Below are positions 29,638-63,438 of a stretch of DNA of 64,000 nt, one piece after another. The DNA lies in IMG/VR virus record IMGVR_UViG_3300045988_144650. One strand, 5' to 3'. The notes beneath the pieces are model-generated. The model ran no database searches, was not told where the DNA came from, and saw only the letters and a program-made list of their open reading frames with translations. Source of the stretch: a virus. Numbering within the stretch: the stretch's first letter is position 1; the number at the start of each line of letters is the position of its first letter. The position numbers and the translations under genes were made by a program.

Positions 29638-29655
29638 CATATTGGTAAACTGGTC

Positions 29656-30493: not shown

Positions 30494-30569
30494 TGGTGGA
30501 GATGGTCGGGATCGAACCGGCGACCTCCTGCTTGCAAGGCAGGCGCTCTCCCAACTGAGCTACATCCCC
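30494..30569 (-). tRNA. tRNA-Ala (anticodon UGC).
   Basis: GGGGATGTAGCTCAGTTGGGAGAGC..., G3:U70 pair, anticodon loop CTTGCAA, T-arm with TTCGATC, 3' ACCA. Confidence 0.8.
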
Positions 30570-30683
30570 GTATGAAATGATTGTTTTATACACTGTAGAT
30601 ATATTGCAAACCATGCAGTAAAGCCCTTGATTCTGGGCTTTACTGACATAGTTAAAACGAAAGATTTTTGGTTTTCCTGCAGT

Positions 30684-33889: not shown

Positions 33890-34218
33890 ATCTGTAATCT
33901 ACAAGTACACCCGTCTTCTTGAGGAAGCTCTGGAGGGACTCCTCGTCGAGAGCTGAGGCTTCGTGAAGCGTGAGTTCGGGATTTCGCATCGGGTCGGTGA
34001 GCGAGAAAACCCTTGTAGTTACAGGGGTTTTCGAGTGTTTCCGAGTGAGGAAAATTTATTTATTTCCTGACCCTGCGAGCAGTGTCATCTCTTGCGCCGG
34101 GCGAATTCGCTGGAGGCGCCTGCCGCAGCGGCGTGCCCCTGGTATTTCCCCCCGGCCATTCGTAACTCCGATTTACAATACGGAGCATTAACTGAAACAG
34201 TTAATAATGCATTACAGA
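33890..34218 (-). ncRNA. Family-1 structured element, long copy B (about 329 nt, retron-ncRNA-like architecture).
   Basis: Minus-strand a1 ATCTGTAAT immediately followed by G, then the conserved CATTA-SL1-TGC-SL2(CTCCG-TATTGTAAAT-CGGAG)-TTACGAATGG module, a variable GC-rich ~230-nt body, and a2 ATTACAGAT 27 nt upstream of the next gene start. Confidence 0.45.
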
Positions 34219-34820: not shown

Positions 34821-35157
34821 CTTTGTAATCATTACATATATATCCTGATTCCCTTCAGTGCGATCATCGATGGGATGCCAATCCCAGTTCTGTCGTCATC
34901 TGATGTGATTTGGACTTCTTGCAGTTGGGAAACCACCTAATTCCGAGGTCTTAGTTGGTGTTTTGCACGGAATTATTTATTTAGTCTTGGTTCAACCGCC
35001 GGAGACTGGGTGCCTCTTGAGGTGTTAACGCGTTGACGGCCGGCGGAGCTGCGGGCGTCACCAGTGGTGGGCTATGTGTTTCCTCCCGACCATTCGTTAC
35101 TTTGATTGACAATACAAAGTGCTACTTGCCAAAGACAAACAGCTATGCATTACAAAG
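34821..35157 (-). ncRNA. Family-1 structured element, long copy C (about 337 nt).
   Basis: a1 CTTTGTAAT-G and a2 ATTACAAAG carry compensatory changes relative to copies A and B. SL2 is CTTTG-TATTGTCAAT-CAAAG. The conserved TAACGAATGG block is present. Confidence 0.45.
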
Positions 35158-37242: not shown

Positions 37243-37569
37243 ATCTGTAATCTACATACTCTGTGATGAGATGACCAGATCAGCTCAGGATACTCGTAGA
37301 TCTTCAGATTCCTGGATTCGGACATCTGATGGCTATGAAGTAACGGTGAACTCCTGGTTGTGCAGGTAATGAGTCTTGGATTTCCTGTGGTTCCTTAAAG
37401 TTTTCTTCAGGAGACACTGATGAAACTCTTGACTTTTGCTGTATAACCTGCGATGCTGCGACCGAGTCGCTGCAGCGTTTCTGGGTAGCCGGGTATTTCC
37501 CGTCCACCATTCGTAACTTTGATTTACAATACAAAGCACTTCCTATTCGGGAAGTAATGCATTACAGAT
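37243..37569 (-). ncRNA. Family-1 structured element, long copy A (about 327 nt), directly 5' of the RT gene. Candidate retron msr-msd ncRNA.
   Basis: a1 ATCTGTAAT-G at the 5' end (minus strand). SL1 is CTTCC-CGAATA-GGAAG and SL2 is CTTTG-TATTGTAAAT-CAAAG, followed by TTACGAATGG. a2 ATTACAGAT lies 22 nt upstream of the RT start. Confidence 0.5.
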
Positions 37570-44051: not shown

Positions 44052-44293
44052 ACACCTCCCTCATGTTGTCAGCGCTGAACTGAAACACACCGTTGAGGAA
44101 AACCTCAATGTGCTCACGAACCCATCTGATTTCGTACATAAGATTTCCTCCTTTTCCTCTTTGGTGAGATGGCTCTTTTTCTGCGTTGAAAATACAGAGA
44201 TTCTTTTTAAGGGTGACACCCCGAAAACCCGCATGAACACGGGCTTTTCTTTTTATTTTGCGACCGGAGTCGTCGCAAAACCGTTTCGGTCTG

Positions 44294-44345
44294 CTCTGCA
44301 TTTACACGGGCTTGCAACCGTTTTGGAAACCCAAAGCTGCATTAG
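44294..44345. repeat. Family-2 two-hairpin element, copy 1.
   Basis: CTCTGCATTTACACGG-GCTTGCAA-CCGT-TTTGG-AAAC-CCAAA-GCTGCATTAG. It is followed on the minus strand by TTGCGA-17-TAAAAA and a hairpin. Confidence 0.45.
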
Positions 44346-44426: not shown

Positions 44427-44514
44427 GGCGGAGAGGGTGGGATTCGAACCCACGGAGGTTTTACCCTCGCCGGTTTTCAAGACCGGTTCCTTAAACCAGC
44501 TCGAACACCTCTCC
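44427..44514 (-). tRNA. tRNA-Ser (anticodon UGA), type II.
   Basis: Acceptor GGAGAGG, anticodon stem-loop CCGGT-CTTGAAA-ACCGG, long variable arm, T-arm GTGGG-TTCGAAT-CCCAC, 3' GCCA. Confidence 0.7.
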
Positions 44515-44518
44515 TTAT

Positions 44519-44746
44519 TCAATAGATGGCGACCGTTTTGGTGAACAGAAGATACAGACCCATGGGAGCAGTCAGCAGAACTGCGGTTGCATCTTTATCT
44601 TCAACCGTGGTTCCCTGAGAAGCTATGTAAATGAGCAGGATGCTCATGGCGATCAGCGCCAAACCATAAAGCTTCTGGATAAACAGCTTCTTGCGACGGA
44701 TCTGATTGCGGGTTCTCTTACTAACAGCTTGCGTGCTCATTTTCAA
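44519..44746 (-). CDS. Small membrane protein.
   Basis: 75 aa with a basic N-terminus and two hydrophobic helices. Confidence 0.4.
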   Translation of the reverse strand: MKMSTQAVSKRTRNQIRRKKLFIQKLYGLALIAMSILLIYIASQGTTVEDKDATAVLLTAPMGLYLLFTKTVAIY

Positions 44747-46510: not shown

Positions 46511-46544
46511 AATCGGATCGTTTTTCAATTCAAGACCCTGCCCA

Positions 46545-46599
46545 CTCTGCGTTTACACGGACTTGTGACCGTTTGCAAAACCTTTGCAAGTCGCATTAG
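46545..46599. repeat. Family-2 two-hairpin element, copy 2.
   Basis: CTCTGCGTTTACACGG-ACTTGTGA-CCGT-TTGCAAA-ACC-TTTGCAA-GTCGCATTAG. Confidence 0.45.
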
Positions 46600-47473: not shown

Positions 47474-48041
47474 AGTTCTTACTCCTTTATGGTTTATTTA
47501 TGGGCAAGCCCATAATGAAGCGCAGTAACCCTTGTGGAGCTACTGCGCTCGATATAGACTTGCGTAGCAAGGGCAAGCCCCTGCGCGCATAAACTTTTTG
47601 ATTGACAAATCATGCTCGCTCAAGTAATTCCCCTGGTCGCCTTACATCTGCGCTATACACCTCCTTGAAGCTTTCACGCATAACACCCAACTCTACCACG
47701 ATAGAGGCATCCTTGATACCTAAACCGCTTAACGGCTTTATCAAATGCTGCTCAGAAACCAGGCTGCATAAGTGAGCCAACACTTATTCACTTGCGCTTA
47801 TTCATATCGCTCAAAGGTCATAGTGACTATAACCTATTGCCGAGAACTCAATACTACCCGCGTTCAGTATCCGCGCACTCTGAACCTAACTTTCAGAATT
47901 TTTGGCTGACCTTCTCTTATGGCGGTTGAAGCCGCGCTCGTGGTAAGAGTACCCTTCTTTTGGTGGCAAAAGTACCCCTTGTGTATGCCCATCAAGGTGG
48001 CGCGTTGGATCGCTCAACCAAGTAAAAACCTGGTCGAACCA

Positions 48042-48099
48042 CTCTGCATTTATACGGGCTTGTGACCGTTCGCCGGAAACCTCCGGCAAGCTGCATTAG
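48042..48099. repeat. Family-2 two-hairpin element, copy 3.
   Basis: CTCTGCATTTATACGG-GCTTGTGA-CCGT-TCGCCGGA-AACC-TCCGGC-AAGCTGCATTAG. Confidence 0.45.
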
Positions 48100-48132: not shown

Positions 48133-48376
48133 CGTTTCGGTTGCCCCATATACACGCACACGGCTGTATGTCACCCTGTGCGGTGTGGCTGTCCGTTTCG
48201 GTTGCCCCATATACACGCACACGGCTGTATGTCACCCTGTGCGGTGTGGCTGTCCGTTTCGGTTGCCCCATATACACGCACACGGCTGTATGTCACCCTG
48301 TGCGGTGTGGCTGTCCGTTTCGGTTGCCCCATATACACGCACACGGCTGTATGTCACCCTGTGCGGTGTGGTCGCG
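48133..48376. repeat. Tandem direct repeats, 61-bp unit x 4 (3.9 copies), GC-rich.
   Basis: The unit CGTTTCGGTTGCCCCATATACACGCACACGGCTGTATGTCACCCTGTGCGGTGTGGCTGTC repeats exactly at 48133, 48194, 48255 and 48316, with a divergent last unit. A partial fifth copy (TACGCACACGGCTGTATGTCACCC) sits at 49368-49392. Confidence 0.8.
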
Positions 48377-48457
48377 GTGTGCGCGGTATATGGTAGTCAC
48401 CAGAGCGCAAAAAAAGGAGGGGCGCGGTTGCCCCTCCTGCGGTGTGTGTATGCGGTT

Positions 48458-49345: not shown

Positions 49346-49731
49346 CAGTTTTTTTCACGGCGTTATTACGCACACGGCTGTATGTCACCCAATAGGAACG
49401 GAGGCGCGTGTGCGGTCATATATCTATGTTGCAAAATGGCACTATGCAACATGGGGGCGTGTTTTCCATATTTACGGCAGAACGGCGACCAGGCTATCCG
49501 GGTAGTTGCTCCACCACATTCACAGCCCTTTTCTCTCAACTTGACCCATCACCCCAAACGCCTGTAAACACAAGGAAAATAGGGCTTTTTATTGTCGGAG
49601 AGAGTGCCGTGATCATGCTGTTTAACCACGATGATCTCTTTGAGAATAAAAAGCCCGCCTTGCTGTAATGGCTTAAAAACGCACTTTAGCATTGGTGCAA
49701 AAAATATCAACAATTTTTTATGAAGAACCCC

Positions 49732-49759
49732 TTGACAAATGCTCCAAAATGAGTATAAT
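49732..49759 (+). promoter_or_regulatory. Near-consensus sigma-70 promoter TTGACA-16-TATAAT (plus strand).
   Basis: TTGACAaatgctccaaaatgagTATAAT, 55 nt upstream of the first plus-strand gene. Confidence 0.55.
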
Positions 49760-49814: not shown

Positions 49815-50633
49815 ATGGGTAACATCATTATGGTAGATTTCAACGCTATGCGTGAGAGTAGGGTGATCGACACTGCAGCAGTCAAGCAGTCACGGAGAGT
49901 TCTCCGAGAAGGTCTGATTGCACCGGCTATCGAGGATACTTCCTACCAGATTGCTGGCGAGCATACCAGTGATCCCATCAAGAGCATTGATGACATCTAC
50001 TCTATCTCCAACTGGTTTATCAGCCAGGGTAGATACAGAGACAATATGCTCTTTATCGTTGGCATCAACTTTGGTCTTCGTGTCAGCGATCTCCTCACGC
50101 TTCGTTTCTCCCATCTGATCGATGAACAGTTCAGGTTCAAGACCACCTTCCCCATTCTGGAGAAGAAGACCAAGAACACCAGAAAGGTTCAGAAGAACAG
50201 ATACATCACCATCAACGATGCGGTGGTCGATGCGGTCATGCTCTACCTTGAGCATACCCACGGTGTGAAGCTGAGTGACTATATGTTTCGTGGTGAGAGC
50301 AACCGGTGTGGTAGCGACAACAAGCCTATGCACCGCAACTCCGTCGAGAGAATTCTGAAAGAGGTTGGTACAGTCCTTGGTATCGAAGCTCATATGGCAA
50401 CCCATACACTTCGCAAGACTTTTGCCTATCATCAGATGCTGATTAGCAACAACGATCCTCGTAAGCTGCTGCTTCTGCAGAAGATGTTTGGACACAGCAC
50501 CTCGGCTCAGACATTGGACTATATCGGCATTACTGGCGAGGAGATCGAAGCTGCCTATATGGAGCTGAACCTCGGTGCCAGACATAAGCCTTACTTGGTG
50601 GACAGCACCATCGGAGAGATGGCTGCCTGCTAA
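49815..50633 (+). CDS. Small tyrosine recombinase (phage integrase family).
   Basis: Box I LRVSDLLTLRF, then HTLRKTF (HxLR) and the catalytic Tyr in SAQTLDYIG. Confidence 0.6.
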   Translation: MGNIIMVDFNAMRESRVIDTAAVKQSRRVLREGLIAPAIEDTSYQIAGEHTSDPIKSIDDIYSISNWFISQGRYRDNMLFIVGINFGLRVSDLLTLRFSHLIDEQFRFKTTFPILEKKTKNTRKVQKNRYITINDAVVDAVMLYLEHTHGVKLSDYMFRGESNRCGSDNKPMHRNSVERILKEVGTVLGIEAHMATHTLRKTFAYHQMLISNNDPRKLLLLQKMFGHSTSAQTLDYIGITGEEIEAAYMELNLGARHKPYLVDSTIGEMAAC

Positions 50634-50847: not shown

Positions 50848-51234
50848 ATGAGAAACAACTGGATCTTGCAGGCCGACGAGGACAATATCGCCGCCGCAAG
50901 AGGAGATTACGATGACTACGGATACGGCGGTACGCACCCAGTGTCCATCGGCGACGAGATCGCTGTGGACGACGAGGAGTGCTTCCAGAGCGGTATCGTA
51001 GTCGGCATTATTCGCAATATCTATGGCGTCCCCGTGTGCTATAAGGTGGTGAGCCGCGCGGACGCAAACGACACCGTGGGCGTGTTCGATTATATCTCTC
51101 CAGACAAGGTAACTGTCTGCGACCCTTGTGGGTCAGCATCATGGTCAGTCAGTCGCATTGGTTATGAGTGGACTGAGGATGATGCCGGTGGGCGCTTCTT
51201 CAATAAGCTGACGGGAGATGTGATCTTTTGGTAA
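50848..51234 (+). CDS. Hypothetical protein.
   Basis: 128-aa ORF. Confidence 0.4.
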   Translation: MRNNWILQADEDNIAAARGDYDDYGYGGTHPVSIGDEIAVDDEECFQSGIVVGIIRNIYGVPVCYKVVSRADANDTVGVFDYISPDKVTVCDPCGSASWSVSRIGYEWTEDDAGGRFFNKLTGDVIFW

Positions 51235-52457
51235 AGGTGTGCGATGCCATCATGGGCACCGGCAAGAGTTCCGCTGCTATCACCTACATGAATGAGCATC
51301 CCGAGAAACGCTTCATTTATATTACCCCCTACCTTGAAGAAGCCAACCGCATCGCCACCTCCTGCGACAAGACACAGTTCTTCGAGCCGCAGAAGATCAC
51401 ACAGTTTTCGGGCTCCAAGACACTGCACACCATCGATCTGGTGAGTCGCGGAGAGAACATTGCAACCACACACCAAGCATTCCGTTTCTATCCGCAGGAA
51501 CTGCTCGACCTTGTCAAAGAGAAGCAGTACACACTGATTATCGATGAGAATGTGGATGTGCTGGAAACACTCGACGAAGATCCTGCCGACATCCAGATGG
51601 CAATTGACGCAGGGTACATTGAGGAGACACGGAGCGGTGTATATCACCTCGTTAAAGATGTGTATACTGGCAAGCTCCACCGTGATCTGTTCCGTGTTCT
51701 GCGGACGAGGGATCTTATTAAGGTTACCGGCGAGAAAAAAGAGTCGTTCTTCTACTGGCAGCTTCCGCCGGAGCTGATTACTTCCTTTGAGGAAGTGTTC
51801 ATTCTGACATATCTGTTCAACGGTCAGAGCCTGCACCATTTTCTGGAGATGTACAACATTCCCTATGAGTTTATCGGGATCGACAAGGCTGACGGTGTAT
51901 TCCGTTTCAGTGACACCTCCAGATATGTGCCGGACTATGTACACACGCTGAAAGATATGATACATATTATCGACAACAAGAAGCTGAACCAAATTGGCGA
52001 GGACAATTTCGCTCTGTCGCTGAGCTGGTTTGGCAAAGAGCAGTCAGATATCAAGAAGCTGAAGAACAATGTCTACAACTTCTTTAATCATATCTGTGCT
52101 GCTACCTCCGCTGAGAGAATGTGGAGCACTTACGCCGATGCAGAATACAAACTGCGCGGCAAGGGATATTCCAACGGGTTTATTCCTTTTAACAAAAAAG
52201 CAACTAATAACTTTAAGGATCGGACGGCTGCAGCCTATTGCGTCAACATCTTTATGAATGTGGGGCAGAAGCTCTTTTATCAGAACAATGGTGTTGATGT
52301 GTACGAAGATGACTATGCACTGTCCATCATGGTGCAATGGATCTGGCGAAGCGCCATTCGTGACGGCAAGAAGATATGGCTGTATGTGCCCAGCAAGCGT
52401 ATGCGCGATTTGCTTACAAACTGGATTGAGGAGGTGAGCAATGGTGGCAGCGTGTGA
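51228..52457 (+). CDS. P-loop NTPase (Zot-like/replication-type ATPase).
   Basis: Walker A GTGKSS at the N-terminus and Walker B LIIDEN. Confidence 0.5.
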   Translation: MVKVCDAIMGTGKSSAAITYMNEHPEKRFIYITPYLEEANRIATSCDKTQFFEPQKITQFSGSKTLHTIDLVSRGENIATTHQAFRFYPQELLDLVKEKQYTLIIDENVDVLETLDEDPADIQMAIDAGYIEETRSGVYHLVKDVYTGKLHRDLFRVLRTRDLIKVTGEKKESFFYWQLPPELITSFEEVFILTYLFNGQSLHHFLEMYNIPYEFIGIDKADGVFRFSDTSRYVPDYVHTLKDMIHIIDNKKLNQIGEDNFALSLSWFGKEQSDIKKLKNNVYNFFNHICAATSAERMWSTYADAEYKLRGKGYSNGFIPFNKKATNNFKDRTAAAYCVNIFMNVGQKLFYQNNGVDVYEDDYALSIMVQWIWRSAIRDGKKIWLYVPSKRMRDLLTNWIEEVSNGGSV

Positions 52458-52577
52458 TAAGTGTCTGTGGCGCGAACAGTGCCTGTCGGATGAAGTGTGC
52501 GAACACTACACCCCAGTTGATGAAGACGAATACATCGACGAAATGATCGAGAAAGGCCGCTACGAGTTCCGTAAAGA

Positions 52578-55412
52578 GTGGTTTGCTTACATCAGCCAGG
52601 ACGATTAACTTATTTTTTTGACAATTCAATACTTATTTATGAGGCGGTGAGCAACATTTCTAAACAACAGTCTTGCCAGAAGTTTATTTACAAGATACAT
52701 AGCGCACGCTTACGCAAGGCGAGGTGGAATTTGACTTTACCGATCTCCGAAGCTCGAAGAAACGACGAGGTCATTTCCTTAAGCGATAGCCAGATGCTGC
52801 GCTTCATAGATAAGCTGAACGGTATTGAAAACGGAGATGCGATTGCAAAAGGTATCAAAAATGAGATAAAAATGCTCAGAAAAGAGCCAAATTCCTTGCA
52901 AAATCGCAGAAAAATCAAGAAATTATACGAAAAACTGGACGAAATCCAGTATAAACCAGACTATATGTGTCTGATTATTGATAAGGAAAAGGATTACTGG
53001 CGTGCTTGCCGTGGCTTCAAGATCAACGGTTTGAAGTATGTGCGGCTGCTCGGAACCAACGGTGGCATCAAGAACTCCACCATCGTGTTCGTCAGCGAGC
53101 GGCTTGCGCCGGAGCTGAGGCGTCGAATCGACAACGGGCGCAATAAGGATATGGAGCTTGTCCCTGCCAAGTTGGAAGCATATCAGGCATTGGTGTGCAG
53201 CGGCTCTACTCCTGTGTCGATGCCAAAGGGTATCGCGGTCGTCAATGACTGTATTACCCACTTCAAGTCTGATGTGGTCAACCTGAATGACGAGACCGCC
53301 GGCGAGCCTGTGATGCAGTTTACCCCTGATGTCGATATTGAACTCAACGCTTCCGACGGATACGGACTGATGCTCCCGTCTTTGGCGAGAAAGTGGTCTG
53401 AAGAACTGAAGCTCGACTATATGGTTAGCGGTGTGAACACCCGCTTCTCGTGGGAGAAAGGTATGGTCTTTACATTCGACTTCCTTGCTTTTGCGGATGA
53501 GGTGGCAGGCACCCGCATCATCAAAGATGCTTGGGGTAACGATGTAGACCTGACCGATGTAGAGTTGATTCTTACGACTTCTATGCTTAAGCTTTGGGAC
53601 TCCTACGACAGTTGCGAGGATTATCTGAGAAACTGCGCGGAGAATGAGTACACATTTGGCATTGCCAAGACTTGTCCTAAACGGTTGGAGCGCGAGCGAA
53701 ATCTGAACTATCAGTTTATTCAGAGCTATGAGCTGACAAATGAACAGATTGAGGAACTGATTGCTCCTACCATCAATGAGATCCATGACATCTTGAGCCT
53801 TGACTGGCGTAAATCGGTTCTGTTCTTAAAGGGCGTTGGGCTTTCCGATGAAAACATCGACTATGTGGACGCCGACTTCGCCAAGGCAATCATGGTAGAC
53901 CGCAGGATGATGGAAGATCCGTTCGTCAGAAAAAAGATTTTCGCTCTAATCAAGAAGCGTATCACCGACGCCAAGATCGGTGTCATCAAGGTGCATGGCA
54001 ACTACTCCATCATTTCTGGCGACCCGTATGCTTTGTGTCAGAGTATATTTGGGCTTGAGATTACAGGTTTGCTGAAGACCGGCGAGATCTACAACAAGTA
54101 TTGGCTTGACAGTGGTTCCGAGAGACTTGCCTGTTTCCGGGCGCCTATGACTTGTCACAACAACATCCGCTTGATGCGAGTGGCGTCTGGCGAGGATGTT
54201 CAGAAGTGGTATCAGTATATGACTACTTGCACCATCCTTAACGCTTGGGACACATCATCGCAGGCATTGAACGGCTGCGACTTCGACGGTGATTTGGTGA
54301 TGTTGACTGACAATAAGATCCTCGTTGAGAATCTCGTTGAGTTGCCGGCTATCATGTGTGTGCAGCGCAAGGCTAAAAAGCGTGTGCCTACTGAGCAGGA
54401 TATGATCCAGTCCAACATCGACAGTTTTGGTGACGATATTGGCAAGATCACCAATCGTATTACTTCCATGTTCGATGTGATCGCCCAGTTTGAAAAAGGG
54501 TCTGAGGAATACGAAGTGCTGGACTACCGCATTAAGTGTGGTCAGCTTTTCCAGCAGAACGCCATTGATAAGGCTAAGGGCATTATTGCAAAGCCTATGC
54601 CGAAAGAATGGTATGACAGAAATTCCAATCGTAGCTGTGATATTGAGGATGAAGCACAGCGACAGTTTAATCTGCGAGTTATCGCTGATAAGAAACCGTA
54701 CTTTATGCGGTACATCTATCCTACGATGATGAAGCAGTACAATACATATATCTCCAACACTAACAAAAAGGCTATTCGCGAGTTCCGCCTGACAATTGAT
54801 GAACTGTTGGAGAAACCTACGGACGAACTCACTGATGACGAGCGCAACTTCATTCGTTACTACCACGCAAAGATGCCTGTTGGTGTACACGACTGCGTAA
54901 TGAACCGAATTTGCAGACGCTTCGAACAGGAGTTCGACGGATACATAGCCCGTCATAGCGGTGACTTTGAGTTTGACTACCGCATTATGAAGAGTGGGCA
55001 AGATTATACAACCACGCAGTACAATGCTGTGCTGCAGCTTTACAACGCTTATAATCGTCGCGCACAGGACTATATGCAGTATGCAAAGAAAGAGCGTGTT
55101 GACGACGATGAAAACGCTAACCAGAAGAGCGTAATGATCCAGGAATTTAAGAGCGAGTGTCAGAGCGTATGCTCCAACAATCTGCAACTGTGCGATATCC
55201 TGCTCGACATCTGTTACCAGAAAGAGGGCTCCAAACAGTTTGTTTGGGATATTGCAAGCGAGGAGATCATTGAGAATCTGCTGAACCGAAATGACAGGTA
55301 TATTTCCTACCCGGTGCTCAATGCCGAGGGCGATGTGGAGTTCGGCGGAGAACGGTTCTCTTTCTCAATAAAGCAGATTGGAGGAGATGCAGATGAGCAT
55401 TGTGTTGAATGA
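52578..55412 (+). CDS. Large protein with the DFDGD motif; YonO-like single-subunit RNA polymerase candidate.
   Basis: 944 aa containing NGCDFDGDLVML, which resembles the universal NADFDGD Mg-binding motif of double-psi beta-barrel RNA polymerases. The phage context and size match B. subtilis SPbeta YonO. Confidence 0.5.
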   Translation: MVCLHQPGRLTYFFDNSILIYEAVSNISKQQSCQKFIYKIHSARLRKARWNLTLPISEARRNDEVISLSDSQMLRFIDKLNGIENGDAIAKGIKNEIKMLRKEPNSLQNRRKIKKLYEKLDEIQYKPDYMCLIIDKEKDYWRACRGFKINGLKYVRLLGTNGGIKNSTIVFVSERLAPELRRRIDNGRNKDMELVPAKLEAYQALVCSGSTPVSMPKGIAVVNDCITHFKSDVVNLNDETAGEPVMQFTPDVDIELNASDGYGLMLPSLARKWSEELKLDYMVSGVNTRFSWEKGMVFTFDFLAFADEVAGTRIIKDAWGNDVDLTDVELILTTSMLKLWDSYDSCEDYLRNCAENEYTFGIAKTCPKRLERERNLNYQFIQSYELTNEQIEELIAPTINEIHDILSLDWRKSVLFLKGVGLSDENIDYVDADFAKAIMVDRRMMEDPFVRKKIFALIKKRITDAKIGVIKVHGNYSIISGDPYALCQSIFGLEITGLLKTGEIYNKYWLDSGSERLACFRAPMTCHNNIRLMRVASGEDVQKWYQYMTTCTILNAWDTSSQALNGCDFDGDLVMLTDNKILVENLVELPAIMCVQRKAKKRVPTEQDMIQSNIDSFGDDIGKITNRITSMFDVIAQFEKGSEEYEVLDYRIKCGQLFQQNAIDKAKGIIAKPMPKEWYDRNSNRSCDIEDEAQRQFNLRVIADKKPYFMRYIYPTMMKQYNTYISNTNKKAIREFRLTIDELLEKPTDELTDDERNFIRYYHAKMPVGVHDCVMNRICRRFEQEFDGYIARHSGDFEFDYRIMKSGQDYTTTQYNAVLQLYNAYNRRAQDYMQYAKKERVDDDENANQKSVMIQEFKSECQSVCSNNLQLCDILLDICYQKEGSKQFVWDIASEEIIENLLNRNDRYISYPVLNAEGDVEFGGERFSFSIKQIGGDADEHCVE

Positions 55413-56148
55413 GAGAGAATGCGCCATAGAAGCGCTGCAGAGATGCGTGCTCGACACGAAGCCTTTGGAAACGCTTGGTCGGGTTGCGAAATATTATCGA
55501 GCAGAGGGCTACAAGAAGTCTGAGATCCACAGTATGTTGGAGTCGTTCATGTTGAAGTGTGATCCTACAATCAACATTGTGAAGTGGCAGGATGCCATCG
55601 ATAGGCAGATCAAGGATGCTGAGAAGTTTCCTCTGATTGAACTCGACGGTATTCCTATCACACAAAGCGAATTGGATGTTTGCGATGGCCTGTCAGGAAA
55701 ACAGATGAAGCGATTGATGTTTACACTCATCTGTCTTGCCAAGTTCTGTAACGCGGTCAGCGATAAGAACAACAACTGGGTCAATCGTCCAGACAAGGAA
55801 ATCTTTAAGATGGCAAATGTGGTTACCCCCATTAAGCGCCAGTCTCTGATGCTTAATGATTTACGCGAAGCAGGATTGATCCGCTTTAGCAGAAAAGTGG
55901 ATAACATCAACATCAATGTTTCCTGTATTGATAATACTGGCGATCCCGTGCTTGTTATCACTGACTATCGTAATCTTGGATATCAGTATATGCGGTACTG
56001 CGGTGAACCGTATTTTGAGTGTGCGTCGTGCGGTGTCGTGATTAAGCGCACCGGAAAGAACCATAAGTATTGTAGCGACTGTGCTGCGGACATCCATCGC
56101 CAGAAAGCGCGTGATAACTTCAAGAACAGGACTCAATATACTAAGTAG
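55378..56148 (+). CDS. Hypothetical protein with a C-terminal zinc finger.
   Basis: CASCG...CSDC Cys pairs. Confidence 0.4.
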   Translation: MEEMQMSIVLNERECAIEALQRCVLDTKPLETLGRVAKYYRAEGYKKSEIHSMLESFMLKCDPTINIVKWQDAIDRQIKDAEKFPLIELDGIPITQSELDVCDGLSGKQMKRLMFTLICLAKFCNAVSDKNNNWVNRPDKEIFKMANVVTPIKRQSLMLNDLREAGLIRFSRKVDNININVSCIDNTGDPVLVITDYRNLGYQYMRYCGEPYFECASCGVVIKRTGKNHKYCSDCAADIHRQKARDNFKNRTQYTK

Positions 56149-56295
56149 CCATTTCAAAAAACTTTCGTTTTAACCATGTCCGTAAAGCCTGATAACAAGG
56201 GCTTTACGGCATGGGGTGCAGTATATCTAAAATGTATATAAAATATGTCAACGCTTTTTTATGAAGCGAAATTCAGACCGAAAGGGAGTTTATTG

Positions 56296-56469
56296 TGATT
56301 ACTATCACCAGTCAGGAAAAAGAGATTATTGCGGAGCGTATGCCGAATGTTCACATTCGCAGAACGGTCAGACAGAAGTCCAAGCGCCATAAGTATTATA
56401 TGGAAGAGAACAAAAACGCCATGCGCCTTCTGAAGGAACTTCGCACTGACAAAACAGAAGTTAAGTAAG
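56296..56469 (+). CDS. Small basic protein (about 57 aa), GTG start.
   Basis: GAAAGGGAG RBS then GTG reads VITITSQEKEIIAERMPNVHIRRTVRQKSKRHKYY... It is not in the ORF track. Confidence 0.3.
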
Positions 56470-56480
56470 GAGGTTAACAC

Positions 56481-57677
56481 ATGGACAAGCTTTCAAAGCA
56501 GCCAAACGAAACAGAGTTGGCGTATCACAAGCGTCTGATCTTTGGTAAGTTGGTTGATGGGACGCTTGCCGATGAGGACTATTCCGAACTTGCACCTTAT
56601 GTATATGGTAAAGAGTATAGTTCTGATGTCGCCCGAAGAATGATGTATGGCAGCAGACGAACTCTGGAGTTGTTGGATGAACAAGCTGTAAAGCAAATCA
56701 CATCCGACGATATTTTGAGCGAGCTGGACGCAAAGATGATTGAGTCCAAAAAGGAGCGTCAAAAGTTTTATGACCAGCGTAATGCGCTGACCAAAGTGAT
56801 CAGAGATCGCTCTCGTCAGGAAGAGTTGAATGAGATCCTGTACGAAGCTATCCAGTCCGGCAATCTTCCTCAGCTTAACTATCAGAGGACAGAAATCGAA
56901 CCCTCGGACAATGATCTACTGGTGAGTCTGAACGATATCCATTATGGAGCAAATGTTCAGAATTACTGGAATACATATAATTCCGACATCTGCCGTGATA
57001 TGATGTGCAGATACCTTGATAAGATTATTTCTATCGGCGAGACACACGGCAGTGAGAACTGTATCGTGTGGGCAAATGGAGATGAGATTAGTGGTAACAT
57101 CCATCAGTCTATTGCTGTCACCAATAAGGAAACTGTGATTGAACAGATTAAGGGTGTGTCGGAGCTGATTGCTGAGTTTCTTGCTGAACTGAGCAAACAT
57201 TTCAGACAGGTAACCTATGTGAGCGTTGCCGGCAATCATAGTCGTATTGACCCCAACAAAGATAAGGCGCTGATTTCTGAGCGACTTGACGATCTTGTTG
57301 AGTGGTATCTTGCCGCAAGACTGCAGAATTTCGATAATGTAGTTGTAGGCGGCGGTGAAAAGGTTGACTGCACTATGTACCTTATTGATGTCCGTGGTAA
57401 GACCTACTGCGGTGTACATGGTGACTTTGATGGCAGCGCAACCAAGATTCAGGCATTGCAGACAATGGCACAAAAGCCTCTGTACGCAGTATTGTCTGGT
57501 CATCTGCACCACAATAAGATTGATGATGTGCAGGGTATTAAAACAATCATGGCAGGATCTTTCCTCGGTATGGACGACTACTGTGTCCAGAAGAGAATTT
57601 ATGGTCGTGCTGAGCAGATGGTATGTGTCTGTGATGGTGATGGCGTCCGGTGTTCATATCCGGTGCCTTTGAATTAA
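56481..57677 (+). CDS. Metallophosphoesterase (calcineurin-like, SbcD/Mre11-type fold).
   Basis: LNDIHYG, GDE, GNH and GHLHHN motifs. Confidence 0.65.
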   Translation: MDKLSKQPNETELAYHKRLIFGKLVDGTLADEDYSELAPYVYGKEYSSDVARRMMYGSRRTLELLDEQAVKQITSDDILSELDAKMIESKKERQKFYDQRNALTKVIRDRSRQEELNEILYEAIQSGNLPQLNYQRTEIEPSDNDLLVSLNDIHYGANVQNYWNTYNSDICRDMMCRYLDKIISIGETHGSENCIVWANGDEISGNIHQSIAVTNKETVIEQIKGVSELIAEFLAELSKHFRQVTYVSVAGNHSRIDPNKDKALISERLDDLVEWYLAARLQNFDNVVVGGGEKVDCTMYLIDVRGKTYCGVHGDFDGSATKIQALQTMAQKPLYAVLSGHLHHNKIDDVQGIKTIMAGSFLGMDDYCVQKRIYGRAEQMVCVCDGDGVRCSYPVPLN

Positions 57678-57757
57678 ATTGATTAGATGTGCTATAGCGA
57701 GCGGGAGGGGTTGACAGCCCCATCCCGCTTTCTTTTTCTCAAAATTATGACAAGGAG

Positions 57758-58798
57758 GTGGCTTGTTTGCCGAGAAGCACACAGATGAATGATCTGACAA
57801 GCCCCGAGCTTGTCGCGCAGGTCAACCCCGAGAATCTGCGGCTAAAAAAGGATTTTCTGGATTATCTAAAATCCGTTCAGAGAAGCCCTGGTACAATTCG
57901 CGGTTACGAGAATGACCTTGATATCTTCTTCGTGTATTGCATGAAGAATCTTGGCAACAAGAACTTTGCAAATGTAAGTAAGCGAGATCTTGTTTCCTTC
58001 CAAAATTGGCTTATCAACGACAATGGAAATTCGCCGTCGCGAGTGCGGCGAATCAAGTCTGCAATCTCTTCTCTATCCAATTTTATCGAAGCAATTCTGG
58101 ATGACGAGGAAGAGTTTAAGAACTTCCGCTCTATTGTTCGTAAAATTGAGTCCCCCGTAAATCAGCCGGTTCGTGATAAGACGATCCTGTCAGAAGATCA
58201 GCTCAACAGTTTGCTGAAAATGCTGACGGATAGTGGCAAGCACGAAAAGGCTTGTATGCTGGCCTTGGCTATGCATTCAGGCCGAAGAAAGTCTGAGCTT
58301 GTGCGCTTTAGGGTCGATGACTTTAAGGACGAGAACTTGGTTTGCGGCGGTGCGCTGTATAAGACAAGCGAAACAATTAAGACCAAGGGCTTTGGACTTG
58401 GCAAATATATTTATTGCTACACACTGGCAAAAGATTTCAAACCCTACTTTGACCGCTGGATGGAACAGCGTGAGAAAGATGGTATTGTCAGTGAATGGCT
58501 GTTCCCGCTCAAGGATGATCCGACACAGCAGATGAAGCCCGAAACACTAAACAGTTGGGCAATATCTTTCGGAAAGCTGTTGGGCGTAGATTTCTATTGG
58601 CACTGTCTCAGACATTACTTTACAACCGACCTTGCCCGCTCCGGTTTGCCGGACGGTGTAATTCAGGAAATCATTGGTTGGACTTCAAGCGATATGGTTC
58701 GCCTGTATAAAGACCTGACTACCGAAGAGCAGTTGGATCAGTATTTTGATGAGACCGGTATCAAGGTTGTTCAGCCTACAAAGCTGAGCGATTTGTGA
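57758..58798 (+). CDS. Tyrosine integrase/recombinase.
   Basis: MHSGRRKSELVRFRVDDF (box I Arg), HCLRHYF (HxLR), catalytic Tyr in DMVRLY, and an N-terminal SAM-like core-binding domain. Confidence 0.8.
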   Translation: MACLPRSTQMNDLTSPELVAQVNPENLRLKKDFLDYLKSVQRSPGTIRGYENDLDIFFVYCMKNLGNKNFANVSKRDLVSFQNWLINDNGNSPSRVRRIKSAISSLSNFIEAILDDEEEFKNFRSIVRKIESPVNQPVRDKTILSEDQLNSLLKMLTDSGKHEKACMLALAMHSGRRKSELVRFRVDDFKDENLVCGGALYKTSETIKTKGFGLGKYIYCYTLAKDFKPYFDRWMEQREKDGIVSEWLFPLKDDPTQQMKPETLNSWAISFGKLLGVDFYWHCLRHYFTTDLARSGLPDGVIQEIIGWTSSDMVRLYKDLTTEEQLDQYFDETGIKVVQPTKLSDL

Positions 58799-58824
58799 TA
58801 ACAGGAATATGAAAGGGTGTTTAT

Positions 58825-59115
58825 ATGTTACAAAGAGATGATTTTATTACACGGCTTGCTCAAAAGGGATATACGAAGCACGAAGCCGGAATTATCATGG
58901 ATGATTTCATCCGTACACTGGAAGAGATCCTTGTTGAGGGTGAATCCGTGATGTTCCGTGGTTTTGGCACCTTTGATGTGCGCGAGCGCTCCGAAAGAGA
59001 GAGCGTTGATCCTCAGAGCAAGGAACGCATTGTGATTCCCTCATACCGCGCTCCCAAGTTTACTCCCGGTAAGCTGTTGAAGCGAGAGGTTAAAGAGGGC
59101 ATCATCCGAGACTGA
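58825..59115 (+). CDS. HU/IHF-family DNA-binding protein.
   Basis: FGTFDVRERSERESVDPQSKERIVIPSYRAPKFTPGKLL matches the HU beta-arm signature. Confidence 0.8.
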   Translation: MLQRDDFITRLAQKGYTKHEAGIIMDDFIRTLEEILVEGESVMFRGFGTFDVRERSERESVDPQSKERIVIPSYRAPKFTPGKLLKREVKEGIIRD

Positions 59116-59126
59116 GGTGATCTTAT

Positions 59127-60194
59127 ATGCCGAAGCAGAGTAAGATAACCAAATCGAGTCCGGGTGTGGCGGCGCCAATTAAGGATGCTCCCGATAAGTT
59201 CTATTGCACGCGGTGTCCGCGTGATTACACAAGGCAGAAAGGAAACTTCCCTGCCTCCCAAAGCCCGATCTACCGTGAGAACGGTGGCTATCTGCCTGTT
59301 TGCCGGCATTGTGTAGACGAAATGTACCAGCACTATAAGACTGTGCTTGGTGATGAAAAGTCTGCAATCCGCAGAATCTGTATGAAGTTCGATATTTATT
59401 GGAACGACAAGATTTACGGTATGCTTAATAAGAGCAGTACCACAAACTCTCGCGTTCTGAGTTATATCAGCAAGTCCAATTTGTATCAGTTTGTTGGTAA
59501 AACATTTGACGATACACTGGACGAAGAGAATGAGCTGATGCAGAGATCGTCCGATGTGGCTTTGGATGAAATTATTGCAGACAGCAATGAAGAGATTACA
59601 ATTTCGAGCGAAATCGTCGAATTCTGGGGCGCCGGTTTCGCTCCTTCATTTTACATTGATCTGGAGAGGCGCCTGAAATATTGGTGTGGTGACGCTGATC
59701 GCTACTCAATGGATGTCAGTGAATGCGCTATTATCAGACAGATTTGTATGTTGGAAGTTACGATTACTCGTGATACAGCCGCAGGTAAGTCAACTGATAA
59801 GTCAGTTAACGCATTGAACACATTGCTTGGTAGTGCAAACCTGAAGCCTGTCCAGAAAAAGAAAGAAGAGAATCTCGATGCAGCAGCAGAGTCAACTCCC
59901 TTTGGTGTGTGGATTCGCAAGATTGAAAACACTCGGCCTATTGCAGAGCCCGATCCGCAACTTAAGGATGTTGACGGTATCGCAAAATATGTTTCCGTTT
60001 GGTTCCTTGGTCATCTTTGCAAAATGATGAAGATCGAAAATACATACAGCCGTCTGTATGAAGAGGAAATGGCACGGCTTCGTGTTGAACGCCCTGAATA
60101 TGAGGGTGAAGACGAAGAAGCTGTGTTTGAAGATATTTTCGCCAGAGCCGATGAGAACGGAACCGATTTTGACGGTGAGATAGATGGCGAGTGA
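59127..60194 (+). CDS. Hypothetical protein with an N-terminal zinc finger, possibly a terminase small subunit or DNA-binding protein.
   Basis: CTRCPRD...CRHC Cys pairs. Its position immediately upstream of the terminase large subunit is suggestive. Confidence 0.35.
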   Translation: MPKQSKITKSSPGVAAPIKDAPDKFYCTRCPRDYTRQKGNFPASQSPIYRENGGYLPVCRHCVDEMYQHYKTVLGDEKSAIRRICMKFDIYWNDKIYGMLNKSSTTNSRVLSYISKSNLYQFVGKTFDDTLDEENELMQRSSDVALDEIIADSNEEITISSEIVEFWGAGFAPSFYIDLERRLKYWCGDADRYSMDVSECAIIRQICMLEVTITRDTAAGKSTDKSVNALNTLLGSANLKPVQKKKEENLDAAAESTPFGVWIRKIENTRPIAEPDPQLKDVDGIAKYVSVWFLGHLCKMMKIENTYSRLYEEEMARLRVERPEYEGEDEEAVFEDIFARADENGTDFDGEIDGE

Positions 60195-61926
60195 AACAAG
60201 AGAAGGTAGAATTTTGGCCGGCGTGGATGCGTGGGCTTCTTTTTATAGAGCCAACCCACACCGTTTTGCTGAAGACTACCTGAATGTCCACCTGCGATTG
60301 TTCCAGAAGATCCTGCTTTATATGATGAATATTTGCTATTTCTTCTGTTACATCGCTGCTCGTGGTCAGGGTAAATCCTGGCTTCTGGCTGTTTTCTGCT
60401 GTATTCGATGTATCCTATACCCCGGTACAAAAATATGTATTGCATCCGGCACACGAGGTCAGAGTATCAACATTCTTGAAAAGATCAAAATTGAGCTTTT
60501 GCCCAACTCTCCTCTTTTGAAAAATGAGATTGAGAACTTGGTCATTTCAAGTACAAATGCGTATGTTGATTTTAAGAATGGCTCCTCTATTAAGGTTGTT
60601 ACTGCGTCTGACTCCGCACGAAGCAACCGTGCCAACATTCTGTTGGTGGACGAGTTCCGTATGGTTAACAAAGACACTATTGAAACCGTCCTGCGCCGTT
60701 TCTTGACCGCCCCTCGTATGCCCGGGTATTTGCATAATCCAAAGTACGCTCACCTCAAAGAGCGTAACAAGGAAGTATATCTTTCCAGTGCTTATTTCAA
60801 GAGTCATTGGTCATATGAAAAGGTCAAAGACTACAAGGATAAAATGCTGGATGATACAACAAAGTATTTCGTGTGTGGCTTGCCGTATCAGCTTTCCATT
60901 AAAGAGGGGCTACTTGACAACAATGCGGTTGCAGACGAAATGTCAGAGGCCGGCTTTAATGAGACCAAATGGTCTATGGAGATGGAGTGTCTCTGGTTTG
61001 GCGACTTGGATGGTACATTCTTTGATTTTGACACTGTTTCTAAGAACAGAAAGATTGCTTACCCCATGTTGCCTGACGATGTGTCAATTAAGCTGACGGA
61101 CTCCAAAAAGGTAAAGATACTTCCGAAACAGAACGGCGAAAAGCGTATTCTATCGGTTGACCTTGCTTTGATGGCAAGTACGAAAAACAAAAACGACGCA
61201 TCCGCTATTTTCATCAATCAGTTGCTGCCAACAAAGGCAGGACGATATACGAATAATCTTGTGTACACAGAATCTTCTGAGGGCGCACATACTGCCGATC
61301 AGGCGCTACGCGTTCGAAAGTTGTATGAGATGTATATGTGCGACTACATCGTAATCGATGTTAAGGGTGTCGGCTTTGGTGTTGCAGATAGCTTGGTTAG
61401 AGACATTAACGACCCAGATACTGGTGAAGTTTATCCTGCTCTTTCCTGCTGCAACAATGCAGAGTGGGCTGCCCGTGCTCCTCATGGCGCTGAGAAAGCG
61501 TTGTGGGTTATTAACGCAACAGACAAATTCAATTCTGAGTGTGCAATTTTGCTTCGTGATGGATTTAGAGCCGGCAGAGTAAGATTGCTTGTATCTGAGT
61601 ATGACGGTGAGACAAGCCTTGCGGGTATCCGTGGCTATGGCTCTCTTGATGCTTCTGATAAACTGCAGCTTCAAATGCCGTATATCAATACTACGCTTCT
61701 GATCAATGAGCTGATCAATCTGCAGCATGATGAGACGAGCGGCTTTGTTAAAATCACCCGTAAAAAGGGTGTGCGAAAAGACCGTTATTCCAGTTTGAGC
61801 TATAGCTATTGGGTTGCTTGTCAGCTTGAAAGCAAGCTTAAGAAAAGAAATAGTTCTGCTTCTGAGAGTGATCAGGTGTTCATGTTCAGAGCACCAAAAG
61901 TTAAACAAGGAAGGCGGGTGAAATAA
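60184..61926 (+). CDS. Terminase large subunit.
   Basis: Walker A AARGQGKSW, Walker B ILLVDEF and a C-terminal RNaseH-like nuclease region. It lies just upstream of the portal-sized gene. Confidence 0.7.
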   Translation: MASETREGRILAGVDAWASFYRANPHRFAEDYLNVHLRLFQKILLYMMNICYFFCYIAARGQGKSWLLAVFCCIRCILYPGTKICIASGTRGQSINILEKIKIELLPNSPLLKNEIENLVISSTNAYVDFKNGSSIKVVTASDSARSNRANILLVDEFRMVNKDTIETVLRRFLTAPRMPGYLHNPKYAHLKERNKEVYLSSAYFKSHWSYEKVKDYKDKMLDDTTKYFVCGLPYQLSIKEGLLDNNAVADEMSEAGFNETKWSMEMECLWFGDLDGTFFDFDTVSKNRKIAYPMLPDDVSIKLTDSKKVKILPKQNGEKRILSVDLALMASTKNKNDASAIFINQLLPTKAGRYTNNLVYTESSEGAHTADQALRVRKLYEMYMCDYIVIDVKGVGFGVADSLVRDINDPDTGEVYPALSCCNNAEWAARAPHGAEKALWVINATDKFNSECAILLRDGFRAGRVRLLVSEYDGETSLAGIRGYGSLDASDKLQLQMPYINTTLLINELINLQHDETSGFVKITRKKGVRKDRYSSLSYSYWVACQLESKLKKRNSSASESDQVFMFRAPKVKQGRRVK

Positions 61927-63438
61927 GTGGAGAAAAAGATTGTTGAAGTGACTGAGAACACTTCTGGGTCGGCGGCGACAAGTTCCAATTTCAATATTGA
62001 TGGTATGATCCATTTGCCACAGAGATTTGCGGCACTTAATCGACTGATTACCAGAGATCTGAACGGCACTTCGAGGAACCCGACTTTCTACCTATACACA
62101 AAAGATCAAATCACAACATTTTTGCAGAATCCTTATAGTAACCAAAAGAATCTGCGAAATGCTGCTATTTACATTTATGGTGCAAGCTCACACTTCCGTC
62201 GGTTGATCCAGTATTTTACTGGGTTGACCGATTTGTCATATGTGCTGTCTCCGCACAAGATTGACACAAGCACCGTAAAACCGGCAACCATCGGTAAGCA
62301 ATACAGAAAAACGCTGAATATGCTTTCTGCGATGGATATCAAGAACCAGTTCCCCAAGATTATTACGGTTTGTCTCCGCGAAGATACATTCTATGGAACC
62401 ATGTGGGTCACCAACGACAACATTACCATTCAGCAGTTGCCGTCCGATTACTGTGATATTGCAGTTGTTGAGGGAAATGTTCTTAATGTTTCGTTCGATT
62501 TCTCATATTTTGACTCAAACAGTGAGTATTTGGCGCTGTATCCGCCCGAATTTGAGAAAAAGTACAAGCTGTATCAGAATGACCGCACAAAGATGAAGTG
62601 GCAGGAGTTGGATTCTCCTACTTCGTTTGCTGTGAAATGTAACACAGATATTCTGAATTATTCTATTCCCCCGTTTGCAGGTATGTTCCGCGAAGTTTAT
62701 GACCTTGAGGACTACAAGCAACTCAAGATGACAAAGACTGAGTTGGAGAATTATGCCATGTTGGTAATGAAGCTTGGCATCAATTCTGATGGCGAATGGG
62801 AAATGGATCTTGATAAGGCAAAAGAATTCTACCGCAACCTGGACAATGTTCTGCCGGAAGAGGTTGGCGCAGTTCTGTCTCCTATGGAAATCAATAAGAT
62901 CAGCTTTGATCGTTCCACCGCTGGTGATAGCGATACGATTGCGGAAGCTGAGCAGAACCTGTTTACCGCAGCGGGTGTTTCCACTCTGCTATTCAACAAC
63001 GATAAGGCTTCGAGCAATGCTTTGCTCCTGTCTATTAAGGCAGACCAAGCGATTACTTATGGCATCGTTAAGAGTCTTGAGGGTGTTGTGAACCGCTTTA
63101 TTCAGAGCTACTCACACGGTAAGAATTTCAAGGTGACATTCCTTGATTGTAGTCCTTATAACCGCAAGGAAATCGGCGAGCAGTATTTGAAAGCTGCTCA
63201 GTATGGTTTACCTACCATTTCTTACTACTGTGCTTCACAGGGTGTATCTCAGGCAGAGATGGATTGCATGAATTTCCTGGAGGATAGCGTGCTTGATCTG
63301 AAGTCAAGGTTCAAGCCGTTGATGAGTTCTGCAACGATGAGTTCCGCTGACGCCGGCGCTCCTCAAAAGGATATTGGAGAGCTGAGTGACTCTGGTGAGC
63401 AGTCCAGAGAGACTGAAGATGGAGACAACAACGAATAA
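61927..63438 (+). CDS. Portal protein (putative).
   Basis: 503 aa with an acidic C-terminus, located immediately after the terminase large subunit. Confidence 0.5.
   Translation: MEKKIVEVTENTSGSAATSSNFNIDGMIHLPQRFAALNRLITRDLNGTSRNPTFYLYTKDQITTFLQNPYSNQKNLRNAAIYIYGASSHFRRLIQYFTGLTDLSYVLSPHKIDTSTVKPATIGKQYRKTLNMLSAMDIKNQFPKIITVCLREDTFYGTMWVTNDNITIQQLPSDYCDIAVVEGNVLNVSFDFSYFDSNSEYLALYPPEFEKKYKLYQNDRTKMKWQELDSPTSFAVKCNTDILNYSIPPFAGMFREVYDLEDYKQLKMTKTELENYAMLVMKLGINSDGEWEMDLDKAKEFYRNLDNVLPEEVGAVLSPMEINKISFDRSTAGDSDTIAEAEQNLFTAAGVSTLLFNNDKASSNALLLSIKADQAITYGIVKSLEGVVNRFIQSYSHGKNFKVTFLDCSPYNRKEIGEQYLKAAQYGLPTISYYCASQGVSQAEMDCMNFLEDSVLDLKSRFKPLMSSATMSSADAGAPQKDIGELSDSGEQSRETEDGDNNE

Follow-up and report, generated by a model that had tools for sequence, protein, structure and literature searches.

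The closest described system is YonO of SPbeta, a strict DNA-dependent RNA polymerase whose 3D>3N loop mutant is inactive, which marks the aspartate triad as catalytic (PMC5467207). Without YonO, which is induced together with the SPbeta prophage, no plaques form; the 37 late genes that it transcribes make up one operon with a single YonO start site upstream of yonK, published as genome position 2225998 (PMC5467207). DNA-templated, rifampicin-insensitive RNA synthesis and a requirement for late genes are known for YonO only, and its recognition sequence and its need for a factor were left open by Forrest et al. 2017 (PMC5467207). Our literature search found no paper on YonO promoter recognition. 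Here we describe a related gene on the plus strand of the IMG/VR virus record IMGVR_UViG_3300045988_144650, of which a stretch of 64,000 nucleotides (nt), called the window below, was analysed. Its product is very likely a YonO-family single-chain two-barrel DNA-dependent RNA polymerase of an SPbeta-like temperate phage or prophage with a gut Oscillospiraceae (Intestinimonas-like) host. It belongs to the already known YonO-like branch and is neither surprising nor new in kind.

An earlier note on this DNA had described a 944-codon open reading frame (ORF) at 52578-55412 on the plus strand and, in its product, a segment resembling the catalytic loop of multisubunit RNA polymerases. The ORF is present in the sequence as described, and the segment is NGCDFDGDLVML (nt 54270-54305, residues 565-576 of the 944-amino-acid reading). 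GTG 52578 is the furthest-upstream possible start only, and it overlaps the 55-amino-acid (aa) ORF 52441-52608, which lies in another frame. The true start is probably GTG 52647, which gives 921 aa. This start is preferred because homologues with 82-85% identity are 920-924 aa long and span 100% of the 921-aa query, and because residues 10-28 in this reading are kept in distant homologues and are modelled with confidence (predicted local distance difference test, pLDDT, 87-92). A small uncertainty stays, as the gene callers' start for a 99%-identical protein is TTG 52731, which gives 893 aa. A 38-nt stretch at 5052-5089 resembles 52626-52663, just upstream of the polymerase start (repeat family D16).

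The comparison with BLASTP showed that SPbeta YonO matches the polymerase with E = 2e-28 and 26% identity over 509 aa (residues 122-610), with LNGCDFDGD opposite LLQFDNDGD of YonO in the loop. In phage records searched with tblastn, the yonO genes of 24 SPbeta-group phages were matched at E about 1e-24, together with homologues in Clostridium phage c-st (42% identity), Enterocloster phages (40%) and Bacillus phage BUCT082 (31%). One of the Enterocloster phage homologues carries the label 'RNA-dependent RNA polymerase', and the NCBI name of an 81%-identical Intestinimonas protein is 'RNA dependent RNA polymerase'. The PHROGs search returned three families, all listed with function unknown. More than 4700 homologous proteins were found at E <= 1e-5 among 8000 candidates scored, and a profile search over 1.84 billion cluster representatives gave a family size of 2481 clusters (50% identity) at E <= 1e-3 and 860 at E <= 1e-30. 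The close relatives belong to Oscillospiraceae/Clostridia genomes and metagenome-assembled genomes (MAGs), including Intestinimonas butyriciproducens, and are also located on IMG/VR phage contigs of 60-130 kb. A profile search with five distant homologues, made for a wider alignment, returned the same close set. Three contigs with close polymerase relatives sit in MAGs labelled Prevotella, Odoribacter and Candidatus Nanosyncoccus, probably because phage contigs were wrongly binned with unrelated genomes.

The AlphaFold2 model of the polymerase, built with 62 homologues, reached a pLDDT of 87.3 and a predicted template modelling score (pTM) of 0.82, and the predicted structure has the two-barrel catalytic fold. 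The top Foldseek matches in PDB were maize and Arabidopsis RDR2 and Neurospora QDE-1 (E = 2e-18 to 8e-14), with a template modelling (TM) score of about 0.48 over about 900 columns. They were followed by the virion polymerase gp66 of the crAss-like phage phi14:2 and then by beta-prime subunits; 8F5M (gp62) is a non-virion two-barrel polymerase of a Thermus phage. The earlier note had suggested structure prediction as a way to look for double-psi beta-barrel domains. Given the predicted fold and the structural matches to two-barrel polymerases, the DFDGD segment does not fall in an unrelated domain.

Two-barrel RNA polymerases share eight invariant residues, listed for QDE-1; besides the aspartate triad, these are the R-x-P before it and, in the beta-like barrel, an Asp with two basic residues (Ruprich-Robert & Thuriaux 2010, PMC2919709). 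All eight have counterparts here: D1007, D1009 and D1011 of QDE-1 correspond to D545, D547 and D549, R962 and P964 to R498 and P500, and D709, R738 and K743 to D237, R266 and K271, the last three with spacings of 29 and 5 residues that are identical to those in QDE-1. All eight are invariant both in a 5-sequence distant alignment and in the 62-sequence family alignment. In the loop, D545, D547, G548 and D549 are invariant among the 62 homologues. The family consensus is DKDGD, found in most close relatives, and DFDGD of the present protein is a minor variant.

The gene neighbourhood points in the same direction. On the plus strand a tightly packed string of genes runs from a tyrosine-recombinase-like gene through a 128-aa ORF, a YonV-like ATPase, a Cys-rich 55-aa ORF and the polymerase to a 251-aa protein, and this order is kept in about 80 related loci. 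The operon with a P-loop ATPase and recombinases reported in the earlier note was recovered, with Walker A and B motifs in the product of 51228-52457 and tyrosine-recombinase-like genes at 49815-50633 and 57758-58798. A protein identical to the 51228-52457 product bears the Pfam domain YonV_C, and tblastn gave 36% identity to SPbeta yonV. No similarity was found between SPbeta YonP and the 55-aa ORF directly upstream of the polymerase. The late gene string downstream contains a 57-aa ORF, a YonJ-like phosphoesterase (E = 2e-15 against SPbeta YonJ), the second tyrosine-recombinase-like gene (57758-58798), an HU-like gene, a YonG-like gene, the large terminase and the portal gene. The Pfam domains YonV_C, YonJ_CC, HU, YonG_N/C, terminase, portal and YonD_N are arranged around the polymerase in SPbeta order, so that the SPbeta cluster yonV-yonO-yonJ-yonN-yonG-terminase-portal is mirrored. 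A gene with an MrpR_N_CB domain, a family named for the SPbeta master repressor MrpR, is present elsewhere in the window. The YonO match in BLASTP, the aligned loops, the two-barrel fold, the eight invariant residues and the SPbeta-like cluster together bear out the YonO-like polymerase that the earlier note had put forward as a candidate. Based on homology and synteny with SPbeta, the plus-strand late genes from 56295 are its expected target, and the polymerase most likely transcribes the phage late genes.

The head of the polymerase operon carries a perfect sigma-70/sigA-type promoter. Perfect 12/12 consensus promoters occur three times in the window, against 0.02 expected. Many related loci have a perfect consensus at the equivalent site about 2.9 kb upstream, and phage PMBT24 has one 36 nt upstream of the polymerase gene. 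The host-type promoter named in the earlier note is thus real, but it lies 2.9 kb away at the operon head and does not adjoin the polymerase gene. As this perfect sigA consensus heads the operon and takes the same relative place in relatives, the polymerase gene is very probably transcribed by the host RNA polymerase.

Some results weigh against the assignment of the polymerase. Searches of Pfam, NCBIfam and PDB sequences with the polymerase as query gave no useful match, and YonO itself is likewise without a Pfam match. As the query has no Pfam or PDB sequence match, pairwise and profile homology and the predicted fold are the grounds for the family assignment. By name, the best structural matches are RNA-dependent enzymes, and template preference is not readable from sequence. 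The protein could accordingly be an RNA-dependent RNA polymerase that copies RNA, e.g., in transcript amplification or silencing, and does not transcribe phage DNA. Homologues 80-95% identical to the polymerase match the Pfam family RdRP PF05183 at 46-58 bits (cut-off 23.8; the query and YonO give no match), NCBI and phage records carry that name, and RDR2 and QDE-1, the nearest solved structures, are eukaryotic enzymes of this type. However, the name was taken over from the Pfam family with no test behind it, in this double-stranded DNA (dsDNA) phage the gene takes the place of yonO in an SPbeta-like late cluster, and YonO, the sole characterised bacterial or phage member of the branch, strongly prefers DNA and is needed for late genes (PMC5467207). 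We consider RNA copying very unlikely and infer a DNA template. It is hardly credible that polymerase activity has been lost and that the protein is a degenerate or repurposed homologue, such as a structural or DNA-binding remnant or a primase-like replication enzyme. The DFDGD loop, where most close relatives show DKDGD, and the lack of a direct Pfam match for the query could be taken in this sense, but the middle residue of DxDGD varies in active enzymes (N in YonO, Y in QDE-1), all eight catalytic or invariant residues are kept, and the whole 921 aa are conserved in more than 4700 homologues with a confident fold.

The gene that overlaps the polymerase stop codon encodes a conserved partner protein of 251 aa. 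It follows the polymerase gene in all related loci and in PMBT24 and BUCT082 (profile E = 1e-24 and 8e-29, respectively). For the partner, 602 homologues were found and no Pfam domain; its PHROG has no assigned function. The model of the partner (pLDDT 95.3) consists of a helical N-terminal domain, a winged helix, a C4 zinc ribbon with four invariant cysteines (C210, C213, C227 and C230) and a basic C-terminal helix. When the partner profile was run against 386 ORFs of five phage loci, the two orthologues were followed by the C-terminal ribbons of YonO (SPbeta 0.004, phi3T 0.008). BLASTP of the partner with the YonO C-terminus gave E = 0.011; the similar segments are YonO residues 795-838, a CxxC...CxxC ribbon with a basic tail, and partner residues 202-245. 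This likeness suggests a gene fusion or fission, the ribbon being part of the polymerase in SPbeta and of another protein here, and it is consistent with, but no proof of, a role in the transcription complex. The partner may be an initiation factor that helps promoter recognition. In a comparison with TFE/TFIIE-alpha the winged-helix fold found support, with scores of 8.1 for ORC2, 7.1 for MCM8 and 6.8 and 6.4 for TFE, many unrelated winged-helix proteins scoring equally well or better, and no sequence similarity between the partner and TFE was found.

A module of about 100 nt, composed of CTTTCGTTTT, a long hairpin and GGTGCAGTATATCTAAAAT, is placed after the polymerase operon. Its copy there, element A, sits in the 146 nt that separate the partner gene from the ORF after it. 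Two further copies were found on the minus strand of the window. Element B was detected with nhmmer at E = 0.012 (E = 9.5e-4 once the model included element B), and element C, 22 nt ahead of a 113-aa ORF that begins at 2780, was found by the core pattern, which has four matches in the window against 0.13 expected. The hairpins of elements A, B and C lie at 56214, 30611 and 2835, respectively. The aligned elements have a mean column identity of 77%, and the module words include GGTGCAGTAT and TAAAAT.

The module is conserved beyond the window. With its profile, 73 of 89 loci each showed a single copy, immediately behind the partner gene, and the hairpin and the conserved block adjoin that gene even where additional genes, 1 kb in all, have been inserted downstream of them. 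After the hairpin, the block has the broad consensus TTGATGrGGTGC-TATAATGAAAGGAAATATA. The hairpin stems vary in sequence yet are stable: when each sequence was folded separately and compared with shuffles, the median was -24 kcal/mol with z = -5.6, and all 32 sequences had z < -2. Compensatory changes were seen in 6 of the 11 hairpin pairs in the close-clade alignment. RNAalifold gave no consensus structure for the broad 32-sequence alignment, because the hairpins are out of register in it. The Rfam scan of the window matched tRNAs only and gave no match for the module. A degenerate core pattern searched across IMG/VR returned 95 mostly unrelated and uninformative matches.

Two ordinary identities were tried for the module and rejected. 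For an intrinsic terminator the hairpin is present (about -27 kcal/mol in the terminator test of elements A, B and C), but no U-tract follows, the hairpin being succeeded by CATGGGGTGC in A and GCATGGTTTGC in B, and the terminator scan was silent. A sigA promoter in the core of A, B and C lacks a -35 element, the corresponding position being within the hairpin arm (TTACGG, 2/6), and the promoter scan was likewise silent; -10-like hexamers are present as TAAAAT, TACAGT and TATAAT. As the module has neither a -35 nor a U-tract, while the evident host promoters of this phage are full consensus, we rank a promoter of the phage polymerase first among the explanations. That the module is such a promoter or start-site region is a candidate reading with a little under an even chance. 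The earlier note had suggested that the minus-strand repeats could be promoters or terminators of the polymerase. This holds only in part: for one family, with two minus-strand copies and one at the late junction, a promoter is plausible.

Several observations weigh against the module as a phage-polymerase promoter. The hairpin occupies the place expected of an early-operon terminator, and in SPbeta a stem-loop is annotated immediately behind yonO. Host sigA could use the A/T-rich hexamer (TAAAAT, TATAAT) with the help of an activator. The module profile, run with nhmmer against SPbeta, phi3T, BUCT082, PMBT24 and TR-TP1, did not detect the P_YonO region, its sole match being the hairpin after the BUCT082 partner gene (E = 0.028). 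The SPbeta stretch compared as P_YonO comprised the 190 nt bracketed by the published primer-extension primers, not the exact start site, and it shares only short words with the module (TGCAGT, TTATGAGGG); the same 190 nt contain CATTGCAGTTAGTCGGATAATAG and TTTATGAGGG, which resemble module words and form a weak link. In SPbeta one YonO-dependent start site was found, against three module copies proposed here. The role of the partner, too, rests on gene adjacency, a generic winged-helix fold and the weak zinc-ribbon similarity. The serious rival, which we hold to be quite possible, is a real polymerase beside a hairpin that terminates the upstream unit and a hexamer that serves as a host sigA promoter without -35, dependent on a phage activator, possibly the partner. 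All three module copies lie 13-30 nt past a stop codon, which agrees with this explanation, as do the SPbeta stem-loop, the -10-like hexamers and TGCTATAAT, an extended -10 in some relatives. It is countered by the missing U-tract and the silent terminator scan, by a TG-to-hexamer distance that ranges among relatives from 0 to 8 nt, which does not fit an extended -10, by conserved blocks outside the sigA elements (CTTTCGTTTT, TTGATGrGGTGC and GAAAGGAAATATA), and by the full consensus with -35 of the evident host promoters. The further-reaching combination, in which the module is the long-sought promoter class of YonO-type enzymes and the winged-helix/zinc-ribbon protein their dedicated initiation factor, is rather doubtful. 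If true, it would describe a minimal transcription system of two proteins that builds on the ancestral two-barrel core and also drives the phage tRNA/tRNA-repair block, with the initiation-factor ribbon fused in SPbeta YonO and separate in the much larger gut-phage branch.

The following course can be proposed. Upon induction or infection, the host sigA RNA polymerase would start at 49732-49759 and read from the recombinase-like gene through the 251-aa partner. The phage polymerase, with a predicted metal site of D545/D547/D549 in one barrel and D237/R266/K271 in the other, would then transcribe the late genes immediately behind its own operon, from the YonJ-like gene through HU, the YonG-like gene, terminase and portal and beyond, in the manner of YonO in SPbeta. 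Transcription probably would start at the module 56162-56245, and further start sites may be 30663-30582, before the tRNA/tRNA-repair block, and 2886-2803, both on the minus strand. The winged-helix and zinc-ribbon partner may aid promoter recognition. As element B directly precedes the first tRNA, the tRNA and tRNA-repair block and the late genes may share their control.

Table 1. Positions of the polymerase gene, the candidate promoter module and other features in the window.
Feature	Position	Strand	Remarks
Perfect sigma-70/sigA-type promoter, TTGACA-N16-TATAAT	49732-49759	+	head of polymerase operon
Tyrosine-recombinase-like gene, first of operon	49815-50633	+	Pfam Phage_integrase E = 7e-17; PHROG 216 integrase
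YonV-like P-loop ATPase	51228-52457	+	Walker A GTGKS, Walker B LIIDE
Cys-rich 55-aa ORF	52441-52608	+	directly upstream of polymerase; position kept in relatives
YonO-type single-chain two-barrel RNA polymerase (predicted)	52647-55412	+	921 aa from GTG 52647 (probable start); ORF of the earlier note begins at 52578
Metal-binding loop codons, D545-F-D547-G-D549	54279-54293	+	aligned with YonO DNDGD
Conserved partner protein, candidate accessory/initiation factor	55393-56148	+	251 aa; overlaps polymerase stop
Element A: CTTTCGTTTT, 16-bp hairpin 56174-56214, GGTGCAGTATATCTAAAATGTATATAAAATA	56162-56245	+	between polymerase operon and late genes
Late gene string, predicted polymerase target	56295-63438	+	order as SPbeta yonK-yonJ...yonG-yonF-yonE
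Element B, second copy of the module	30582-30663	-	12 nt upstream of tRNA-Ala (30569-30494)
Element C: CTTTCGTTTT, different short hairpin, GGTGCAGTATTTCTATAAT	2803-2886	-	found by core pattern
Five-copy family	27532-27565, 27768-27801, 34138-34189, 35072-35123, 37489-37540	-	minus-strand block
Four-copy family: CTCTGCATTTACACGGGCTTGTGACCGTT, then GCTGCATTAG about 20 nt on	44277-44322, 44492-44537, 46528-46573, 48025-48070	+	

The minus-strand block contains seven tRNA genes, genes for RtcB, a CCA-adding enzyme, Thg1 and RlaP, and an MrpR-type repressor gene. The set for tRNA and tRNA repair or maturation is located at 25492-30569 and 13669-16886 on the minus strand, and one tRNA has an odd anticodon loop. 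The lysogeny-control region comprises the MrpR_N_CB gene (3601-4554, minus strand), a PemK-family toxin gene (about 4700-5100) and a gene for a LexA-like repressor with a helix-turn-helix domain and an S24 peptidase domain (5700-6494), which is encoded on the plus strand within the minus-strand block. The third perfect sigA consensus promoter lies at 5055-5027 on the minus strand. For the ORF 36076-37221 the exact-protein look-up found no record.

Other repeats were noted in the window. A 61-nt tandem repeat of four to five copies with the core ACGCACACGGCTGTATGTCACCC occupies 48133-48432, about 4.3 kb upstream of the polymerase, and next to the divergent consensus promoters, at 49368-49390, the core occurs once more. 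Among relatives, many IMG/VR contigs stop 4.1-4.6 kb upstream of their polymerase gene. In SPbeta the packaging start is between yonR and yonP, just upstream of yonO (bioRxiv 10.1101/2021.11.22.469490). The tandem repeat could be a packaging (pac) or terminus region, or a mere assembly-breaking repeat. The five-copy family is intergenic and consists of TGTAATGCAT ... GCTYYGTATTGTAAATCRRAGTTACGAATGG ... GGAAAYACC and includes a small hairpin; it does not resemble a sigma-70 promoter, is unmatched in Rfam and shows no relation to the polymerase-linked module. The four-copy family, located in the switch region between the minus-strand and plus-strand gene blocks, may represent operator-like sites.

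As the polymerase is an ordinary member of a large, already named family, the finding mainly corrects annotation: databases say 'RNA-dependent RNA polymerase' or 'hypothetical', and the context points to a late-gene transcriptase. The conserved module and the partner are possibly new parts, and the window with about 80 relatives offers a concrete candidate promoter module and a candidate factor for the question of YonO recognition. A host-independent late transcription system matters for reading transcription in the gut virome, since these phages are abundant in gut Clostridia, and for orthogonal expression tools.

Compared with the eukaryotic enzymes QDE-1 and RDR2 (PF05183), the present polymerase has 12-17% identity and different N- and C-terminal domains; these enzymes act in RNA silencing, whereas the present gene stands in the late-gene context of a dsDNA phage. 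No sequence similarity to the present polymerase is detectable in gp66 of the crAss-like phage phi14:2, gp96 and gp64 of P23-45 or gp62 of P74-26. Moreover, gp66 and gp96 are packaged in the virion and are much larger or fused to other proteins, whereas the present enzyme would be expressed from a host promoter after induction.

The likeness to YonO comprises a single chain with both barrels, the aligned DxDGD and the same place in an SPbeta-like gene order, and the present polymerase presumably does the job of YonO, i.e., late-gene transcription. The two differ in length, YonO having 839 aa and the present polymerase 921 aa; the latter has an additional segment at its N-terminus and ends differently at its C-terminus. 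The C4 zinc ribbon with a basic tail forms the end of YonO, whereas here a similar ribbon ends the separate 251-aa protein encoded just downstream. The small ORF upstream of the polymerase is unrelated to SPbeta YonP, and the host of SPbeta YonO is Bacillus, whereas here it is a gut Clostridia bacterium.

The polymerases of c-st, the Enterocloster phages PMBT24 and CB457P1, and BUCT082 belong to the same sub-branch as the present one, with 42%, 40% and 31% identity, respectively, over more than 90% of the length, and in PMBT24 and BUCT082 the partner gene follows the polymerase, as here. Their only annotation is hypothetical or 'RNA-dependent RNA polymerase'; the c-st homologue was earlier listed as YonO-like (PMC7824862). 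Several are split by insertions: polymerase homologue genes in two or three pieces were seen in phi3T (phi3T_60/59, 3608-6515), c-st and the CB457P phages, and in an Intestinimonas prophage a GIY-YIG gene interrupts the terminase gene (L004 17423-20222), which suggests introns or homing-endonuclease insertions in the late-gene module.

BUCT082, a Spbetavirus, joins the two types of polymerase. At the yonO position it carries a partner-type polymerase of 924 aa, 25% identical to YonO and with the loop DFDYD, together with a partner gene; the polymerase module is exchanged within Spbetavirus (3260-6870 of the BUCT082 record against 11357-13876 of the SPbeta record). The late leader of BUCT082 (yonN-yonK, including the P_YonO primer region) is about 97% identical to that of SPbeta. 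The occurrence of a partner-type polymerase beside this late leader supports the equivalence of the two polymerase types.

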